From Dictyobacter arantiisoli (GTDB lineage Bacteria; Chloroflexota; Ktedonobacteria; Ktedonobacterales; Ktedonobacteraceae), in NCBI RefSeq assembly GCF_008326305.1, contig NZ_BIXY01000010.1, forward strand, positions 51,137 to 115,136: a DNA stretch of 64,000 nucleotides, read 5' to 3'. The number at the start of each line of letters is the position of its first letter. Position 1 is the stretch's first letter. The notes under the pieces are model-generated. The model saw nothing but the letters and a program-made list of their open reading frames with translations, was not told the origin of the DNA and searched no databases. Made by a program: the position numbers and the translations under genes. Below, one piece after another: positions 8,489 through 53,688 of this stretch.

Positions 8489-9208
8489 ATGTCCACCACT
8501 ACAGGTTCTCGGGAGACACAGGCCACTGTGGAGTCGGGGGCGACGATCAGCCGTACGGGATTACAGGGCTGGTTGTTGATGCTCCTGGTTTTTATCGCTG
8601 GCGCTGCTTCGCTCTCGATTGAGATGGCAGCCTCACGCCTGCTCGCGCCATACTTCGGCGATTCTTTGTTTGTCTGGGCCAGTATCATTGGCTTGATCTT
8701 ACTGTATCTCACGGTCGGCTATTATGTGGGTGGATTGCTCTCTGATCGCTATCCCAGACCAGCTCTACTCTATTGGATTACCGCCGCTGCCGCACTTCTG
8801 ATCGCACTGGTTCCCGTCATCGCTGGCCCGCTATTGAGCTGGGCCCAACTTGCCTTTGCTGGTTACGACAATGGAGTATTTTATGGTTCCTTGTTGACCG
8901 TCATTCTCCTCTTTGCGCTTCCCACGATCCTCCTGGGTTGTGTGTCGCCATTCTCGATTCGGATACGTATGCAACAGGTCGGTAGCGCGGGACGCGTCTC
9001 CGGGATGCTCTACGCCATTTCAACTGCCGGCAGTATTATTGGTACCTTTCTGCCCACACTAGTGCTTCTGCCCGATCTGGGTACCCGACAGACCTATCTG
9101 GTGACGGCACTTGCCCTGCTACTGATTGCGATTGCTGGCCTGCTCTTTGGAGGCCGGATAAATACACAATTGGTAATAATGCAAGATTCCAGCGAGCTTC
9201 CCGTCTGA
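8489..9208 (+). CDS. Polytopic membrane protein resembling only the N-terminal membrane domain of fused MFS/spermidine-synthase proteins; catalytic domain absent
   Basis: At least 6 hydrophobic helices. The ORF stops at 9208 and no continuation exists in any frame before the next gene. Confidence 0.45.
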   Translation: MSTTTGSRETQATVESGATISRTGLQGWLLMLLVFIAGAASLSIEMAASRLLAPYFGDSLFVWASIIGLILLYLTVGYYVGGLLSDRYPRPALLYWITAAAALLIALVPVIAGPLLSWAQLAFAGYDNGVFYGSLLTVILLFALPTILLGCVSPFSIRIRMQQVGSAGRVSGMLYAISTAGSIIGTFLPTLVLLPDLGTRQTYLVTALALLLIAIAGLLFGGRINTQLVIMQDSSELPV

Positions 9209-9350: not shown

Positions 9351-10637
9351 ATGAGTAATCAACAAGGGTTACCCCCTAACTATTTCTATCATAAATTGCC
9401 GAATGGTATTGAGCTTATCGGTCAACGTATGCCCAGCCTGAGCTCTATTAGCTTTGGTTTCCAATTGGATGCAGCGGTTGTCCATGAGCCAGAGGAGCAG
9501 CAAGGGCTGGCTCATCTCTTTGAATATATGCTCTTCCAGGGTACAAAAACCAGGGATGCACGCGCATTGAACGAGGCGTTTGAGAGCCTGGGCGCACGCA
9601 AAGGAGCCAGCACCAGTCTGGAAACAGCGATGGTCTGGGGCCAGATTGTCAATACGAAATTCGATGCTACGCTCGATCTTTTCCGAGATATCTTGCTCAC
9701 ACCGACCTTCCCACGTGATGAGCTGGATCAGATGCGCAATCTTATCCTCCAGGAGATTCGTCGCCGTGACGATGAGCCGATGAGTAAGATCTTTGAGCTG
9801 GTACGCGCCGATTTCTATAAAGGGACAGCCCTGAGCCGTCTGGTACTGGGCACCGATGAGAGCGTACGTCAGTTAAAACAACAGGATCTCCGTAATTTCT
9901 GGCAAGCACGCTATCATCCCAATAACATCCTTTTCTCTATCGCTGGCAAATTCGAGTGGGATCAAGTGGTTGAGAAGATAGGTCATCTTTTCGGAGATTG
10001 GCAGGGGGAGGCCGCAGCATCGGCCGAGCAGACGCCCAATCCACAAACCAGCGTCTCGCTGGAGTTCCGTGAAGGCAAGCAGGAACATATTGGCCTGATG
10101 GTGCCATTTCCAAATTATAATGATCCAGACTACTATGCCGCGATGGTGATCGCGGAGGTACTGGGCGGCTCAATGGCCTCACGACTGTTTGTTGAGGTAC
10201 GTGAGAAGCGCGGTCTGGTGTATAGCGTTTCAGCCGGTCTGGCCGGAAACAAACACATCGGAGCCCTGCGCATCTACGCTGGTACCACTCCTGAGCAGGC
10301 CCATGAGTGCCTTGAAGTGATCATTAATGAGCTGCACAAATTAGAACGTGAAGGCATCACTGCCGATGAACTGGATCGCACCAAGGTTCAGTTGAAGAGC
10401 GAGCATGTGATGCACGGTGAAGGCTCAGCCTCACGTATGAGTGCCATTATCCGCTCCTGGTGGTATGAGCGCCAACTCAAAACAATTCAGGATGTCAAAG
10501 ATGGTATCGACGCCGTCACGCAGGAACAGGTATTGAGAGTGCTCAAACGTTACTCACCCGTTCAGCCTATGACAATCGCCGCCATCGGCCCCCTGTCCAA
10601 AGAAGAACTGGTAGGCACTACGCTTCCCAATTCCTAG
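9351..10637 (+). CDS. M16 (pitrilysin/insulinase) family peptidase, possibly a non-catalytic subunit
   Basis: M16 N-terminal signature GLAHLFEYMLFQGT. The inverted zinc motif reads HLFEY instead of HxxEH. RBS AAAGGAA. Confidence 0.75.
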   Translation: MSNQQGLPPNYFYHKLPNGIELIGQRMPSLSSISFGFQLDAAVVHEPEEQQGLAHLFEYMLFQGTKTRDARALNEAFESLGARKGASTSLETAMVWGQIVNTKFDATLDLFRDILLTPTFPRDELDQMRNLILQEIRRRDDEPMSKIFELVRADFYKGTALSRLVLGTDESVRQLKQQDLRNFWQARYHPNNILFSIAGKFEWDQVVEKIGHLFGDWQGEAAASAEQTPNPQTSVSLEFREGKQEHIGLMVPFPNYNDPDYYAAMVIAEVLGGSMASRLFVEVREKRGLVYSVSAGLAGNKHIGALRIYAGTTPEQAHECLEVIINELHKLEREGITADELDRTKVQLKSEHVMHGEGSASRMSAIIRSWWYERQLKTIQDVKDGIDAVTQEQVLRVLKRYSPVQPMTIAAIGPLSKEELVGTTLPNS

Positions 10638-24647: not shown

Positions 24648-25970
24648 ATGTGTAAGAGGATGCGTTGGTCATGGCTTAGTGTATTTACGCGTGCACCCTT
24701 TGCCCTACGAATAGGAGTTTGTCTCTCAATGTTTCTCGGTAGCGCAATCTTTTACTTTCTCACCTTTGAAAAAATACGCAATAGCTATGTTTTGCTGCTT
24801 CCTATGCTGGTATGCACGGTCGCTTTTCACAAGAAAGGGGCCCTGGTCTGCTTTGTTAGCACATTCACAATTATGTTCTGCCACATGCTTCTCTTCCATA
24901 GCAACCATCCTGACATAAGTATGGTACTAGTAGTCTTTGTGTTTATTCTAAATATACTGGTGCTTGCGGCAGTTGGTATAGGCATGATTTCCTTGCGCAC
25001 AAAATATATAGCATCTCTAGCAGAAACAAAATATATAGCATCTCTAGCAGAAACAAAAGATACAGGCATAACAGGTATAACAGCAGATATAGCAATGACG
25101 CCAGCCGCTATCGAGGCTGAACAGGGTGAACTTGAACGTCAGATGGCTCTGGTTCAGGATCAGTTCCGCCAGTTACAGGAGACACAGGAACAGTTTGTCT
25201 CGAATATGAATCATGAGTTGCGTACCCCACTTACGGCCGTCTATGGATATTTTGGACTGCTTCAATATATCTTTGAGAAAAATGGTACGCTCGAATACGA
25301 ATCTCATGCAAGCTATATGCGCAACGCGGTGCAATATTGTGAAGATCTCTGCTCTATTGTAAACAATATCTTGAAGAATATGGATATCGATCACCAGCAG
25401 CAACCTATCCCAGGCGAGGAATGTTCTCTCGCTCAGATGATACAAGAACTTTGTAGCTCAGGTGACCTGGACACATCCGAACAGCAACGTCTTCAGATTC
25501 AGCTTCCTGCACACGATCTGATGGCTTACACTGATAGCTCATGTCTGCGCCATGTGCTACAACAACTCATCTCAAATGCATTCAAATACACGCCGGAGGC
25601 ATCACCAGTGATGATAAGCGCCACAGCTTATGACGATGCCATGGATTACATCTGCATCAGCGTCACTGATAGAGGTCCTGGCATTCCACCCGCAGAACAG
25701 GATCGTATTTTTGAGCAGTTTGTACGTCTCAAACGCGATATTGCCGGGACAGTACAGGGAGCGGGATTGGGACTGACAACCTGTAAGCATTTAATTGAAA
25801 GTATGCAGGGGAAGATCTGGGTGGAGAGTACAGGAATTATGGGTGAAGGGAGCAGCTTCCGTTTTATCCTGCCACGGACTGCTTCAGTCAGGAAACAGCC
25901 CGTACCAGGCATACAAGATATACAAGGCATACCAGAGATCAACCGCGTGCCCTCTCAGGCACTGCGTTGA
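24648..25970 (+). CDS. Membrane sensor histidine kinase (HisKA + HATPase_c); no cognate regulator adjacent
   Basis: H-box NHELRTPLTAV, G-boxes DRGPGIP and GAGLGLT. 4 TM helices N-terminally. Confidence 0.8.
   Translation: MCKRMRWSWLSVFTRAPFALRIGVCLSMFLGSAIFYFLTFEKIRNSYVLLLPMLVCTVAFHKKGALVCFVSTFTIMFCHMLLFHSNHPDISMVLVVFVFILNILVLAAVGIGMISLRTKYIASLAETKYIASLAETKDTGITGITADIAMTPAAIEAEQGELERQMALVQDQFRQLQETQEQFVSNMNHELRTPLTAVYGYFGLLQYIFEKNGTLEYESHASYMRNAVQYCEDLCSIVNNILKNMDIDHQQQPIPGEECSLAQMIQELCSSGDLDTSEQQRLQIQLPAHDLMAYTDSSCLRHVLQQLISNAFKYTPEASPVMISATAYDDAMDYICISVTDRGPGIPPAEQDRIFEQFVRLKRDIAGTVQGAGLGLTTCKHLIESMQGKIWVESTGIMGEGSSFRFILPRTASVRKQPVPGIQDIQGIPEINRVPSQALR
25002..25055 (+). repeat. Perfect 27-bp tandem duplication inside the kinase gene (encodes KYIASLAET twice)
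   Basis: aaatatatagcatctctagcagaaaca x2. Confidence 0.8.
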
Positions 25971-27827: not shown

Positions 27828-28334
27828 CTACTTTCTTCATACAGTGCTGCTCATCAAACGTCTACCGGTGTTCGTGTCATCAGAACACGTTGCACGCATA
27901 CAGATAAAACGCATGCATGGGCTTCAAATAACAGAACATGGCGACACATTTTGCTGGCATGCGATACAGCCAGTAAAGCACATTTGCTCATCTAACTGAA
28001 GAGCATAAGCTCGATTGTAACCAGTATATCTTCATTATATCAAAAACACCCTCCAGGTACATCCCCAACAGGCCTGAAAGTTGTGGCAAGAACTATCGTG
28101 GCGACGAAAGTGTCCGATACATTATCTCATACAGTTGTATATCTTGATTAATACCCGGATATAAGGTATGGTACTATCGTAAAATACTCTCTTGTGGATG
28201 AGTGAGGAAAACGGCTATTCATCAAACATAGCACGCTTTTTCATAAAGTGACAGGCCCTCGTAATTCGTACATTCTTGTCCCACCGATGTAGATCTCATA
28301 GGAAGCATGAGATTTATGGTGCGAGAAAGTTGAG

Positions 28335-29039
28335 ATGAGCGATCTTATGATACCAGCACCAACTCAACCGCCACCAACGCAGATAGTACCGGCAGCACCT
28401 CAAATAGAGACTCCCAATGAAGAACGGCCAAAGGTTGCGCTGACACCGGCGCGCAGAAGGCCAGGACAAACTCCACTTGCCCGGACGATTAAAGCTATTT
28501 TTCGTCCTGTCTTTAAAATACTCTACTACATCATCAGTTGGATTCGGACCCACAAGCTCGTCTCGTTACTCGCACTGGCACTGTTAATCGGAAGCATCGT
28601 GGCAACATCTTATTTTGTGGGCAATAATGCTCCTCTGGCTTCGCAGGATAGTATGAAAAGCTCGGTCCAGAAAAATACTCAGATCAGTCCTGATGTGCAA
28701 AACTGGTTGCTGGGACTCCGCGATGGCAAGCTGAATACTATGCTTGAAGTTGAGAAGGCGATGAGTACGGTGCATCGCCCACCGGATAGCTCACTTTATG
28801 TGCTGCAATTTAGCGAAAAATACAATCAGGTGAAATGGACCAATGTGAGCGTGACCAGTATCAATGCTGCCCCTGATGGCATGATAGACACATTCATTGA
28901 AACTGATCTTACAGTGACCAGCACAAGTAGTACCAGCACATCAACCGCCCCGACCAGATTAATCGTGCTCTGGCACTTTACCACGTTAGCCAATGGTCAA
29001 ATCTATTTGATCGATTATGTGTCGGCACGGAGCGCATAA
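28335..29039 (+). CDS. Hypothetical membrane-anchored protein (Pro-rich N-terminus, one TM, extracytoplasmic domain)
   Basis: 234-aa ORF with TM LVSLLALALLIGSIVATSYFV. Confidence 0.45.
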   Translation: MSDLMIPAPTQPPPTQIVPAAPQIETPNEERPKVALTPARRRPGQTPLARTIKAIFRPVFKILYYIISWIRTHKLVSLLALALLIGSIVATSYFVGNNAPLASQDSMKSSVQKNTQISPDVQNWLLGLRDGKLNTMLEVEKAMSTVHRPPDSSLYVLQFSEKYNQVKWTNVSVTSINAAPDGMIDTFIETDLTVTSTSSTSTSTAPTRLIVLWHFTTLANGQIYLIDYVSARSA

Positions 29040-29040
29040 C

Positions 29041-29115
29041 AGAACAGAACAGAACAGAACAGAACAGAACAGAACAGAACAGAACAGAACAGAACAGAAC
29101 AGAACAGAACAGAAC
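29041..29115. repeat. Pentanucleotide microsatellite (AGAAC)15
   Basis: 15 perfect tandem units immediately after the stop of the upstream ORF and ~110 bp upstream of the ftsH-like start. Confidence 0.95.
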
Positions 29116-29224
29116 ATCAGAATACGAAAATTGCAACCTCTGATGGCGCTGAAAAACCAATAACTTCATCGCTCACTCTACACATACTCATAGAAGCAGG
29201 CACTATGCAGAAGGGATAGATGCA

Positions 29225-31192
29225 GTGGCAACAAATACAACCAATACAAAACGGCCACGCAGTAGTCTGGATAAGTCAATCGATCTGGGTATGGACCAGT
29301 TTGGCCGCTTCTTACGACGAGCCTGGATCTGGCTTGCCCTGCTCGCGCTGGTTATCTGGTTCTTTGCCTCAGGTACGACGGTGGCAGGTATTGATCCTAT
29401 CACGGCTGTGGGTCTTTTGCTGCAAATTATGTTTGCCATCTTCTTTGTGCTCGTACAATTTATCGCGATTTTCTGGTTTCTAGGAAGACCCCGTCTCTAC
29501 TGGGTGATGCCCGGTGAAACAGGTGTAACCTTCGAGGACTATAAAGGGAATCCAGAGGTGCTTGAGTCGGCACGGCGCATTGTCACGCTACTCCAGGGGG
29601 TCAAAGAATTCCAGCAGATGGGCGGAAATCCTATTCGCGGTTTGCTCCTTTCTGGACCGCCGGGAACCGGGAAGAGCTATCTGGCACAATGTATGAGTAC
29701 TGAGGCCGGGGTACCCTTTGCCTATGCCAGTGCATCCAGTTTTAAAGCTATGTTCATGGGTATGGATGTACTGATGATCAGCAATCTCTATCGCAAAGCA
29801 CGCCGCCTGGCACGCGAATACGGTGGTTGCGTGGTGTTTATGGATGAAATTGATGCAATTGGCACGGCACGCGGCGCAAACGGTCCCACGATGGGCATGG
29901 GCGGTGGCATGATGGGCGGAATGATGGGTGGCGGCACAGGTGGGCTCAATCAGCTCTTGATGGAGATGGACCCACCAAACATCGAGACAGGTTGGTTTAA
30001 GAAGATCCTGCGTACGCTTGGCCTGACGCATGGCCGCGTACAAAACGAGCCGGTTCTGACCGTCGGAGCGACGAACCTGCCTGAAGCCCTCGATCAAGCT
30101 CTACTGCGGCCCGGGCGCTTTGATCGTCAGATCCATATTGCGGCCCCAACTGATAAATATCGTCCCGAAGTGATTGAGTATTATCTCCATAAGATTGAGC
30201 ATGAGCCAGACATCTCTATCAGCGCGCTTTCCGCACGGCTGGTCAACTATACACCGGTCGCCATTAAGCACGTTATCAATGAAGCGACTATCATTGCCCA
30301 CTTTGAAGGCCGTCAAAAGGTTACCTACAAAGATCTGATTGAGGCCCAGGATGTACATGAGTATGGCCTGCGCCAATCGAGCGAACTGACAGAGATTGAA
30401 CGCCGCCGTCTGGCCTATCATGAAGCCGGACACACGGTCGCCAGTTACTATCTGATGGATCGCTACTTCCCGGCCTATGTGACGATCCATATGCGGGGGG
30501 ATGTGGAAGGTGCCGCTGCCTTTGCCCATCCACGACCAAAAGAAACGGTGATCACGCATAACCGGGAAGATATCCTGGCTCGTATACAGGTCTCACTGGC
30601 CTCACGGGCCGCTGAAGAACTCTTCTTGAATACCAAACTCAGTGGTGTGACAGGAGATTTCCAGAGCGCGACACAACAGGCAGCCCTCTATATCGGTGCC
30701 TACGGCATGGATAATACCCTGGCCTCGATTCTGGCAATGCAGAGTACCAATGGAGCCCTCGGCAATATACCACGCTTCTCAGAGCGCGTCGAAAGTTTGC
30801 TTCAATCGCAGCTTAATGCTGTCAAGCAACTCTTCCTTGAACATAGCGAGGCGCTGATCGCGGTCGCCGAAGCACTGATCGAAAAGGACGAGTTAGTCAC
30901 GGAAGAAATCAAAACGTTGATCGATAATGCGGATGCACGGCGCGTGGCGCAGAACCTCTTTGGCGAGCTCACCCCTTTACCGAGTATCGACAGTGGTCAG
31001 AATAGCAACGGCAATAGCGAGCATAATACGAGCAATGGACGTGCACAGGGAACAGGCCATCTGGCTGAACCACATATCCTGAACAATACACTGCCTGATG
31101 GGACACTACAGTTCCCGATGTCCTCGCTGAATGGGTCCGGTTTTATAGAAACATTTGATTATCCAGACAATCCTGAATCACCTGCCCTATAA
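29225..31192 (+). CDS. Divergent FtsH-family AAA+ zinc metalloprotease paralogue
   Basis: Two TM helices with only a short loop between them. Walker A GPPGTGKS, Walker B VVFMDEID, SRH LLRPGRFDRQ, zinc motif HEAGH. GTG start with RBS AAGGGA. A Gly/Met-rich insertion (GMGGGMMGGMMGGG) lies between the Walker B and SRH regions. Confidence 0.8.
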   Translation: MATNTTNTKRPRSSLDKSIDLGMDQFGRFLRRAWIWLALLALVIWFFASGTTVAGIDPITAVGLLLQIMFAIFFVLVQFIAIFWFLGRPRLYWVMPGETGVTFEDYKGNPEVLESARRIVTLLQGVKEFQQMGGNPIRGLLLSGPPGTGKSYLAQCMSTEAGVPFAYASASSFKAMFMGMDVLMISNLYRKARRLAREYGGCVVFMDEIDAIGTARGANGPTMGMGGGMMGGMMGGGTGGLNQLLMEMDPPNIETGWFKKILRTLGLTHGRVQNEPVLTVGATNLPEALDQALLRPGRFDRQIHIAAPTDKYRPEVIEYYLHKIEHEPDISISALSARLVNYTPVAIKHVINEATIIAHFEGRQKVTYKDLIEAQDVHEYGLRQSSELTEIERRRLAYHEAGHTVASYYLMDRYFPAYVTIHMRGDVEGAAAFAHPRPKETVITHNREDILARIQVSLASRAAEELFLNTKLSGVTGDFQSATQQAALYIGAYGMDNTLASILAMQSTNGALGNIPRFSERVESLLQSQLNAVKQLFLEHSEALIAVAEALIEKDELVTEEIKTLIDNADARRVAQNLFGELTPLPSIDSGQNSNGNSEHNTSNGRAQGTGHLAEPHILNNTLPDGTLQFPMSSLNGSGFIETFDYPDNPESPAL

Positions 31193-52704: not shown

Positions 52705-53688
52705 ATGTCACTGGCAATGCAAACCGAAAAAACAGTTGCTGTGGTTGGTATTCGCTTTCGTCCTACGGGCCGTATTTACTACTTTGATCCCGTAGAACAG
52801 GTCTTTTCGAATGGCCAGTACGTCATTGTAGAAACAGTTCGTGGTGTAGAGGCTGGTCGTGTAGTGATTGCCTCAAAGAAACTGGCAGAAGGCGACCTGA
52901 GCGATCCCTTGAAACCAATTCTACATCTGGCGACAGAAGACGAACTGCGGATGATGCTTTCCTTTAAGAGTAAAGAAAAAGAAGCATTGGTTCGCTGCCA
53001 CGAGCGTGTGATGTATCACAAGCTTCCCATGAAGCTTGTTGAGGCTGAATATACGTTCGATGGGAGCCGCCTGACCTTTTACTTTACTGCGGACGAACGT
53101 GTAGATTTTCGGATCCTGGTCCGTGACCTGGCCTCTACGTTCCGTACGCGTATTGAGTTGCGCCAGATTGGTGCACGCGATCAAGCCAAATTGCAAGGCG
53201 GTGTAGGTCCTTGCGGCAAAACCCTCTGTTGTAGTTCTTGGATCACTGACTTTGGAATCGTCTCGATCAAAATGGCAAAAGAACAGGGGCTCCCTCTGAA
53301 TCCCTCCAAAATCTCGGGTGTCTGCGGACGCTTGATGTGCTGTCTCTCGTATGAAAATGACAACTACATTCAGGCCAAACAGCAGATGCCACAAATCGGG
53401 ACCTTTCTAGATACCCCCAGTGGTCGTGGCAAGGTTGTCTCAATCAATGTGCCACAAAATTCCGTTGAAGTCATGCTTGAGAGTGGCGTCACAATTCACA
53501 CCCCGGTTGAAAGTCAACCCGTGAAAGCGGGCGGCTGTAGCGCCAAAGGTGGAAGTTGTGGCTGTAGCGCCAAAGGTGGCGGCTGTGGAAGCGGTGGCTG
53601 TGGCTCCAAAGGTGGCGGCTGTGGAAGCGGTGGCTGTAGTACCAAAGGTGGCGGCGGCTGCGGATCATGTAGTCTGAACAGGAAATAG
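52705..53688 (+). CDS. PSP1 C-terminal domain protein (RicT/YaaT-like) with a Cys/Gly-rich tandem-repeat tail
   Basis: PSP1 core with conserved Cys clusters CGKTLCCSSW and CGRLMCCLSY. The C-terminus is GGCSAKGGSCGCSAKGGGCGSGGCGSKGGGCGSGGC, encoded by DNA tandem repeats at about 53521-53670. Confidence 0.7.
   Translation: MSLAMQTEKTVAVVGIRFRPTGRIYYFDPVEQVFSNGQYVIVETVRGVEAGRVVIASKKLAEGDLSDPLKPILHLATEDELRMMLSFKSKEKEALVRCHERVMYHKLPMKLVEAEYTFDGSRLTFYFTADERVDFRILVRDLASTFRTRIELRQIGARDQAKLQGGVGPCGKTLCCSSWITDFGIVSIKMAKEQGLPLNPSKISGVCGRLMCCLSYENDNYIQAKQQMPQIGTFLDTPSGRGKVVSINVPQNSVEVMLESGVTIHTPVESQPVKAGGCSAKGGSCGCSAKGGGCGSGGCGSKGGGCGSGGCSTKGGGGCGSCSLNRK

Follow-up and report, generated by a model that had tools for sequence, protein, structure and literature searches.

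A perfect pentanucleotide microsatellite between the two cistrons of an FtsH-like gene pair in Dictyobacter arantiisoli

The gene pair around the tract

Dictyobacter arantiisoli is represented by one sequenced strain, Uno17T (GCF_008326305), with a genome of 7.21 Mb, a G+C content of 49.6% and an ANI of about 72–74% to its congeners (PMC12453558). The part of this genome that we analysed, a stretch of 64 kb with a G+C content of 49.95% that is called the window in the following, carries a perfect pentanucleotide microsatellite, (AACAG)15.8, at 29038–29116 on the plus strand. It is located between two genes on the same strand. The upstream cistron (28335–29039, plus strand) encodes a membrane protein of 234 aa and ends with a TAA stop codon at 29037–29039 that shares the first two nucleotides of the tract, and the downstream cistron (29225–31192, plus strand) starts with a conserved GTG and encodes a divergent FtsH paralogue of 655 aa with AAA and Peptidase_M41 domains. 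The gene order at this site is common to D. arantiisoli, D. aurantiacus, D. alpinus and D. vulcani, with a RsmD-like methyltransferase and a 400-aa hypothetical protein on the minus strand, followed by the ~230-aa gene, the FtsH paralogue and a PMT_2 glycosyltransferase on the plus strand. Neither Rfam nor a tRNA search gave a hit in the window, and the tract thus does not belong to any known RNA.

The 234-aa protein is 100% identical to a hypothetical protein of D. arantiisoli and is conserved in Ktedonobacteria, and no match to it was found in Pfam or NCBIfam. In the alignment its C-terminus ends in the same column as the C-termini of its orthologues, which shows that the position of the stop is conserved. 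According to an AlphaFold2 model (mean pLDDT 80.9) its N-terminus is Pro-rich and disordered and is followed by long helices (about residues 47–96) and a confidently modelled alpha+beta domain at the C-terminus. Using this C-terminal domain as query, Foldseek returned weak hits (E ~1e-3) to a homologue of the OCP C-terminal domain (OCP-CTDH), to ketosteroid isomerase and to a VirB8-like component of type IV secretion, and the modelled domain may therefore be called NTF2-like, if only weakly.

The FtsH-like protein of the window is 100% identical to the ‘AAA family ATPase’ of D. arantiisoli, and its nearest relatives are found in other Ktedonobacteria with at most 81% identity. Both expected domains are present (PF00004 at 1.7e-25 and Peptidase_M41, PF01434, at 5.2e-24) and its HEAGH motif, with H399, E400, G402 and H403 invariant in the FtsH-like alignment, has the HEXXH form of a zinc site. 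Against the FtsH equivalog model TIGR01241 the protein scored 277.8 bits with a cut-off of 600, and against NF008004 it reached 168 with a cut-off of 1008. As both scores stay below the cut-off, the downstream gene is a divergent FtsH paralogue and not an FtsH equivalog, and the original prediction, which had called the gene at 29225 an FtsH paralogue, was right in view of both domains and of a score of 278 versus 600 bits. The start context AGTG(G/T)CAACAAATACAACC around the GTG is conserved. The protein also has a Gly/Met-rich loop, GMGGGMMGGMMGGGTGG (residues ~222–240, window ~29885–29945), which closely follows Walker B, precedes the conserved LNQLLMEMD and is itself conserved in relatives; in D. 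aurantiacus (locus L001, 4703–4737) and D. alpinus (locus L002, 4673–4695) this loop is coded by short repeats of 9–12 nt.

Virtually all sampled Ktedonobacteria encode a bitopic membrane protein of ~230 aa directly 5' of the divergent FtsH paralogue, and such a constant neighbourhood suggests that the two proteins work together. The gene pair looks like an unstudied protease–partner operon, and literature searches for FtsH in Ktedonobacteria found nothing. Independent of the repeat, the comparative work exposes a conserved and unstudied pair of an NTF2-like membrane protein and a divergent FtsH across the Ktedonobacteria.

The repeat tract and its rarity

Tandem Repeats Finder reports 29038–29116 as an array of period 5 with 15.8 copies, 100% matches and 0 indels (score 158), corresponding to 79 bp, and direct reading of 29020–29120 gives ...GCGCA TAA CAGAACAGAAC...AGAAC ATCAG. 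On the minus strand the tract reads (CTGTT)n. The original prediction had described it as (AGAAC)15 at 29041–29115, located 1 nt past the upstream stop codon and about 110 bp 5' of the GTG at 29225. The repeat was confirmed exactly by direct reading and Tandem Repeats Finder, and its location is correct on the sequence; the periodic run reaches 3 nt further to the left and 1 nt further to the right. When the unit is read in the AACAG phase, the tract starts with the second base of the TAA of ORF 28335–29039, and 108 nt lie between its end at 29116 and the GTG (110 nt if counted from 29115). Three mechanically called ORFs run across the tract (29017–29163 on the plus strand, 28978–29169 and 28986–29117 on the minus strand), and they owe their existence only to a unit that lacks stop codons in all six frames. 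A coding repeat was rejected, as the true upstream ORF stops at a conserved position.

The runner-up among the perfect SSRs of the 64-kb window has a length of 18 bp, and the maximum in 30 composition shuffles was 12 bp. The tract is hence a long SSR in the prokaryotic sense, i.e. a perfect or near-perfect tandem array of a 1–11-bp unit that is significantly longer than composition predicts. A phasome would consist of a genome-wide set of such repeats at the 5' ends of genes; within the 64-kb window we found no further long SSR, and seeds resembling (AACAG)2 are not enriched elsewhere in it, with four one-mismatch matches versus 3.7 expected. In 523 kb of Ktedonobacteria DNA the tract is the sole perfect non-triplet SSR of at least 18 bp, and it is about three times longer than the second-longest SSR of any unit (27 bp).

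An exact scan for (AACAG) with at least five units was performed on a collection with one genome per species, comprising 185,579 species and 596 Gb of prokaryotic DNA. At least 120 stretches spread over many phyla were found, and the matches listed take in no genome of Ktedonobacteria. Among the 122 listed tracts 19 have 15 units or more with a maximum of 23, and about half of those listed that are not close to an edge (150-nt margin) are intergenic. The (AACAG)n motif is rare yet recurrent, and the length of the D. arantiisoli tract is unexceptional among the listed matches. The earlier statement that tracts of this length are rare in bacterial chromosomes broadly holds, as seen from the uniqueness in 523 kb and from the 19 of the 122 listed AACAG tracts reaching at least 15 units. 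No AACAG repeat in bacteria was found in literature searches. As an observation of its own, (AACAG)n tracts of 5–17 units recur in genomes of Brachyspira, Treponema and Spirochaeta, with several per genome in some of them. Some of these tracts are located 50–120 nt 5' of ORFs, and they may represent uncharacterised contingency loci in host-associated spirochaetes.

Other interpretations of the repeat were tried and rejected. Non-B DNA or hairpin-prone single-stranded DNA does not seem to be the driver, as both strands of the tract fold at 0 kcal/mol as ssDNA. The purine-rich strand is broken by a C in every unit, and an interrupted purine run does not qualify as a homopurine triplex motif. A LexA/Cheo-type box, which we take to be GAAC-N4-GTTC, does not fit either, as the GAAC copies of the tract are all direct repeats, with no inverted GTTC on that strand.

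The intercistronic spacer in relatives

To the conserved GTG, the orthologous spacers of D. aurantiacus, D. alpinus, D. vulcani, D. kobayashii and D. formicarum have a length of 108–125 bp, and no tandem repeat was found in these five congeners. The spacer in the window has 185 bp, of which 106 bp are left when the tract is subtracted. From this agreement with the congeners it follows that the whole tract is a net gain, placed at the outermost 5' end of the spacer. Additionally, 80 metagenomic loci with the same FtsH paralogue were included; the partner gene could be located in 76 of them, the remaining four lacking upstream DNA, and none of the 76 spacers contains an SSR. The recurrence in relatives that would characterise a phase-variable locus was not observed in the five congeners and 76 metagenomic loci, and the absence of the tract from every relative examined argues against an evolved switch.

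In all 79 related loci for which this was analysed, the ~230-aa gene is directly followed by the FtsH paralogue on the same strand. The spacers between them have a median length of 36 bp (n = 79, range 7–219 bp) and 66 of the 79 are not longer than 60 bp. Such short spacers consist of little more than the conserved motif GCAGAAGGGAT a few bases 5' of the start codon, and the spacers of Dictyobacter are about three times longer than those of other Ktedonobacteria.

D. alpinus shows TA-AACTG-AACTG-C at the stop codon of the partner gene (L002, 3880–3889), which is the same site as that of the tract. Its (AACTG)2 begins on the last base of the stop and the unit is one base off AACAG. The post-hoc chance of a match of this type is about 0.004, with three sister species having been examined first. 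From the sequences this can be taken as a hint that a proto-repeat existed at the stop codon and was later expanded in place in the D. arantiisoli lineage.

The comparison also bears on the question whether the tract or its copy number could result from low-complexity mis-assembly or from contamination with a eukaryotic microsatellite. The genome is a draft known from one assembly (PMC12453558) and the source contig has 115 kb. Moreover, about one quarter of the listed public (AACAG)n tracts are found at the edges of loci or contigs, mostly in MAGs (25 of the 122 not more than 60 nt from the locus edge, 32 with a 150-nt margin), suggesting assembly problems or contamination in those cases. The tract of D. 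arantiisoli, however, is internal, both of its flanks match the order of the orthologous Dictyobacter locus up to the tract edges (the stop codon on the left; homologous spacer, ribosome-binding site and GTG on the right), 79 bp can be spanned by ordinary reads, and a related two-copy repeat occupies the same site in D. alpinus. An artefact is therefore very improbable in our opinion, and the exact copy number is the only part that is uncertain.

The remaining 108 nt of the spacer (29117–29224, plus strand), about as long as a whole spacer in the sister species (108–125 nt), are poorly conserved in the alignment with the sister species except for the ribosome-binding site. In the alignment of six Dictyobacter spacers only this site and the start are conserved in all of them, with the motif GCAGAAGGGAT of the FtsH-like cistron at 29207–29217 on the plus strand being kept throughout, and consequently the site of insertion appears unconstrained. 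A block ACCAATAA at 29155–29165 of the window, about 55–65 nt 5' of the FtsH-like start, is common to D. arantiisoli, D. aurantiacus (as ACCAATAC), D. kobayashii and D. formicarum and is not present in D. alpinus and D. vulcani. This block may belong to a regulatory or promoter element that is specific to a subclade.

A consensus scan of 28000–29600 revealed no promoter on the plus strand and no terminator. With relaxed settings the best candidate within the spacer reached 7/12 (ATAACT-17-CATACT, 29160–29188, with the -10 ending at 29188), a value that refers to the sigma-70 consensus, which Chloroflexota promoters may escape. No promoter candidate is conserved in position among the spacers of the sister species, and candidates with 8–8.5/12 sit 5' of the 234-aa gene. 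Beside the 3' end of the tract a pattern search found a 7-bp inverted repeat, CATCAGA-N17-TCTGATG (29115–29145), which probably occurs by chance: at least one such match with up to two mismatches was present in 31 of 100 shuffles, and no evident counterpart was found in the aligned spacers of the sister species. An intrinsic terminator after the 234-aa gene was rejected as well, since none is predicted and since the inverted repeat has a loop of 17 nt, is not significant and is not followed by a T-run.

Judging from gene order and spacer length, transcription most likely starts 5' of the 234-aa gene, making the tract intercistronic. As the short spacers leave no room for an own promoter in most relatives, co-transcription of both genes is the economical reading, and, in view of the longer Dictyobacter spacers and of the ACCAATAA block in four species, an internal promoter specific to this genus is formally possible. 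The original prediction had linked the tract to a promoter and to phase variation via promoter spacing, and neither of these two claims is supported. There is no credible sigma-70-type promoter on the plus strand of the spacer, the 7/12 candidate being the best and none being conserved, and the spacers of relatives with their median of 36 bp hold only the ribosome-binding site. A tract of 79 bp is also too long for the spacer between -35 and -10 (16–19 bp), its context is operon-like, and it is absent in relatives. The accompanying arithmetic, one unit of 5 nt being equivalent to about half a helical turn, is correct.

This helical argument could apply if a promoter of the FtsH-like gene was located in the 108 nt downstream of the tract and if the tract spaced it from an upstream operator, activator or UP-like element. 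A slip of 5 bp would then alter both the distance and the helical face and would lead to graded or alternating expression, as at nadA with its (TAAA)n tract. In Neisseria meningitidis the nadA SSR is located 5' of the core promoter and works by distance and phase between protein-binding sites, with a documented spacing-dependent repression over the repeat (PMC2791445), and this is the only geometry in which the helical-face argument could fit the D. arantiisoli tract. The distance of 108 nt to the start also resembles that of known upstream SSRs, e.g. hmw with 69–106 bp (PMC2651432), and the Dictyobacter spacers are unusually long and contain, in D. arantiisoli, the weak CATACT with ATAACT 17 nt upstream (29160–29188). 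However, the nadA tract is flanked by mapped NadR operators and an IHF site (PMC2791445), whereas no promoter, operator or regulator is identifiable in D. arantiisoli and coding sequence borders the tract on its 5' side. The consensus scan yields no promoter, the relaxed 7/12 candidate is not conserved in position, and the short spacers of most relatives have no room for an internal promoter. As the tract is absent in 81 of 81 relatives, such a switch would have to be newly arisen and not an evolved system. Hence, we consider it unlikely that the tract acts by spacing a downstream promoter.

The transcribed tract, its slippage and known repeat systems

The RNA of the tract contains no U and is unpaired in both the MFE and the centroid structure (271-nt context). 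In a partition-function fold of 651 nt the mean pairing probability is 0.17 for the tract versus 0.56 for its flanks, and the predicted pairing probability of the ribosome-binding site is 0.41 with the tract and 0.47 without it. When the tract was paired with each 40-nt window of the putative transcript, the best duplex was obtained with CUG-rich codons at 29321–29360 (-21.2 kcal/mol), compared to -20.7 kcal/mol for the best of 20 shuffled transcripts, and the real duplex is composed of 3-bp helices split by loops.

With the tract being placed in the mRNA by its operon-like context, a 79-nt change in the spacer could affect Rho loading, RNA processing or ribosome standby. The length of the A-rich single-stranded tract might then set the output of the FtsH-like protein relative to its partner, be it through ribosome standby, through the entry of Rho or of a single-strand-specific RNase, or through a site for an RNA-binding protein, and slippage would vary the stoichiometry heritably. 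The tract is predicted to be wholly unstructured, and unstructured RNA is needed for standby sites as well as for Rho loading. Yet the C content of the tract equals its G content and it has no pyrimidine-C dinucleotides, a composition that makes a poor Rho-utilisation site by the usual criteria. Furthermore, the accessibility of the ribosome-binding site hardly shifts with the tract (0.41 vs 0.47), 90 nt separate the two, and all relatives do without the tract. Transcribed intergenic SSRs can indeed work post-transcriptionally, as described for the 5'-UTR of hmw (PMC12721329), but the long hairpin needed by that mechanism is absent here (-21.2 vs -20.7 kcal/mol; pairing 0.17). Tuning at the RNA level is accordingly regarded as improbable.

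In Haemophilus influenzae the (ATCTTTC)n tracts of hmw1A and hmw2A comprise 13–38 units about 70–106 bp 5' of the start, are located outside the ORF and are transcribed, and their control is graded and not ON/OFF (PMC2651432; PMC12721329). With its 108 nt the D. arantiisoli tract falls within a distance of ~70–110 bp upstream of the start as known from hmw (PMC2651432). At hmw the repeats together with a G-rich segment form a long hairpin in the 5'-UTR that is cleaved by RNase III (PMC12721329), whereas the D. arantiisoli tract is predicted to be unpaired and lacks a complementary partner. A hmw-type hairpin, in which the repeat pairs with a complementary leader segment, was therefore rejected, the best duplex barely beating the shuffles. 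The hmw tract is also present in several strains of a host-adapted pathogen with varying copy number, in contrast to a tract between two cistrons in one soil strain. Translational contingency loci, such as the tetranucleotides of H. influenzae and (GACGA)n in hsdM, share with our tract a non-triplet unit for which high-frequency slippage is expected, but they sit inside ORFs and cause ON/OFF switching by frameshift (PMC2651432). The D. arantiisoli tract starts in the TAA and ends 108 nt 5' of the GTG; it is outside both ORFs and a frameshift ON/OFF switch is thus impossible.

Like the prokaryotic long SSRs with units of at least 4–5 bp (PMC4060949, PMC12699852), the tract is a perfect head-to-tail non-triplet array beyond chance. 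Further features in common with such SSRs are a non-coding location and a free-living bacterial host whose genome is large (7.21 Mb for D. arantiisoli). According to these sources, units of this size escape suppression in prokaryotes and mark hot spots of indels; the tract is unique within the 523 kb of Ktedonobacteria DNA. The D. arantiisoli tract is a further prokaryotic long SSR and an ordinary member of this group. Mismatch repair deals poorly with loops of more than 3 nt (PMC4060949), SSR units of at least 4 bp are not counter-selected in prokaryotes according to the surveys of Mrazek and colleagues, as summarised in PMC4060949, and the density of pentanucleotide STRs tracks indels in bacteria (PMC12699852). 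The original prediction had seen the tract as a substrate for slipped-strand mispairing, and with 15.8 perfect units this is plausible from the expectation given in these sources (PMC4060949, PMC12699852). The tract is probably hypermutable.

We favour, with a probability of roughly 60%, that the tract is a lineage-specific microsatellite maintained by slippage, which expanded in place in an unconstrained 5' part of the intercistronic spacer and is transcribed as an unstructured, neutral or nearly neutral linker. A two-copy proto-repeat just past the stop of the first gene would have expanded in the D. arantiisoli lineage, filling the sole poorly constrained part of the spacer, and a promoter 5' of the 234-aa gene would drive its transcription as a 79-nt unstructured linker free of U. 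Replication slippage would then let the tract grow and shrink at little or no cost in fitness. As the phase T-AACAG-AACAG of the repeat overlaps with the stop codon, adding or losing complete units always restores the TAA. Since in addition both ORFs, the ribosome-binding site 90 nt downstream and the GTG are left untouched, slippage should be tolerated with little or no effect on fitness. The perfect purity of the tract would reflect ongoing turnover by slippage and not selection for a function. The tract probably has no effect or, at most, tunes expression mildly, with near-neutrality taken as the default assumption, and a graded effect on expression is possible. The phenotype to be expected from the preferred reading would be a length polymorphism, with the output of the FtsH-like cistron unchanged or shifted only a little.

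If the tract was merely the result of runaway slippage at an unconstrained spot, it would be a curiosity that might be used as a strain-typing marker. It would also be a caution for annotation pipelines in which any SSR upstream of a gene is treated as a phase-variation switch. Heterogeneity driven by SSRs is considered characteristic of host-adapted pathogens whose genomes are small. An example at an operon junction of a soil member of the Chloroflexota with a 7-Mb genome would widen this picture, if the repeat number indeed tuned the FtsH paralogue. It could also be imagined that a rheostat has newly arisen at this operon junction, with slippage heritably varying the output of the FtsH paralogue versus that of its NTF2-like partner, but we give this only a slim chance. 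Such a rheostat would imply that clonal populations of a free-living, mycelial soil bacterium of the Chloroflexota are heterogeneous in their membrane-protein quality control. The phylum would thereby gain its first contingency-type locus based on an SSR, located at an operon junction rather than in a promoter or ORF.

Longer tandem repeats of other kinds were observed within the window and in D. alpinus. In the window, ORF 52705–53688 (plus strand) contains a 36-bp repeat in three copies at 53533–53655 (90% matches), overlapping with periodicities of 27 bp and 18 bp, which encodes the Cys/Gly-rich C-terminal tail (...GGCSAKGGSCGCSAKGGGCGSGGCGSKGGGCGSGGCSTKGGGGCGSCS) of a 327-aa protein. ORF 24648–25970 (plus strand, 440 aa) carries an in-frame duplication of 27 bp in 2.4 copies at 24999–25062 (97% matches) encoding the peptide KYIASLAET, and its syntenic counterparts in the sister species have HisKA and HATPase_c domains. 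In the D. alpinus locus (L002) a 91-bp repeat in three copies (8910–9182, 97% matches) is located about 200 bp from a dUTPase gene, and a perfect 51-bp repeat in two copies (9686–9789) lies in or near the next genes.
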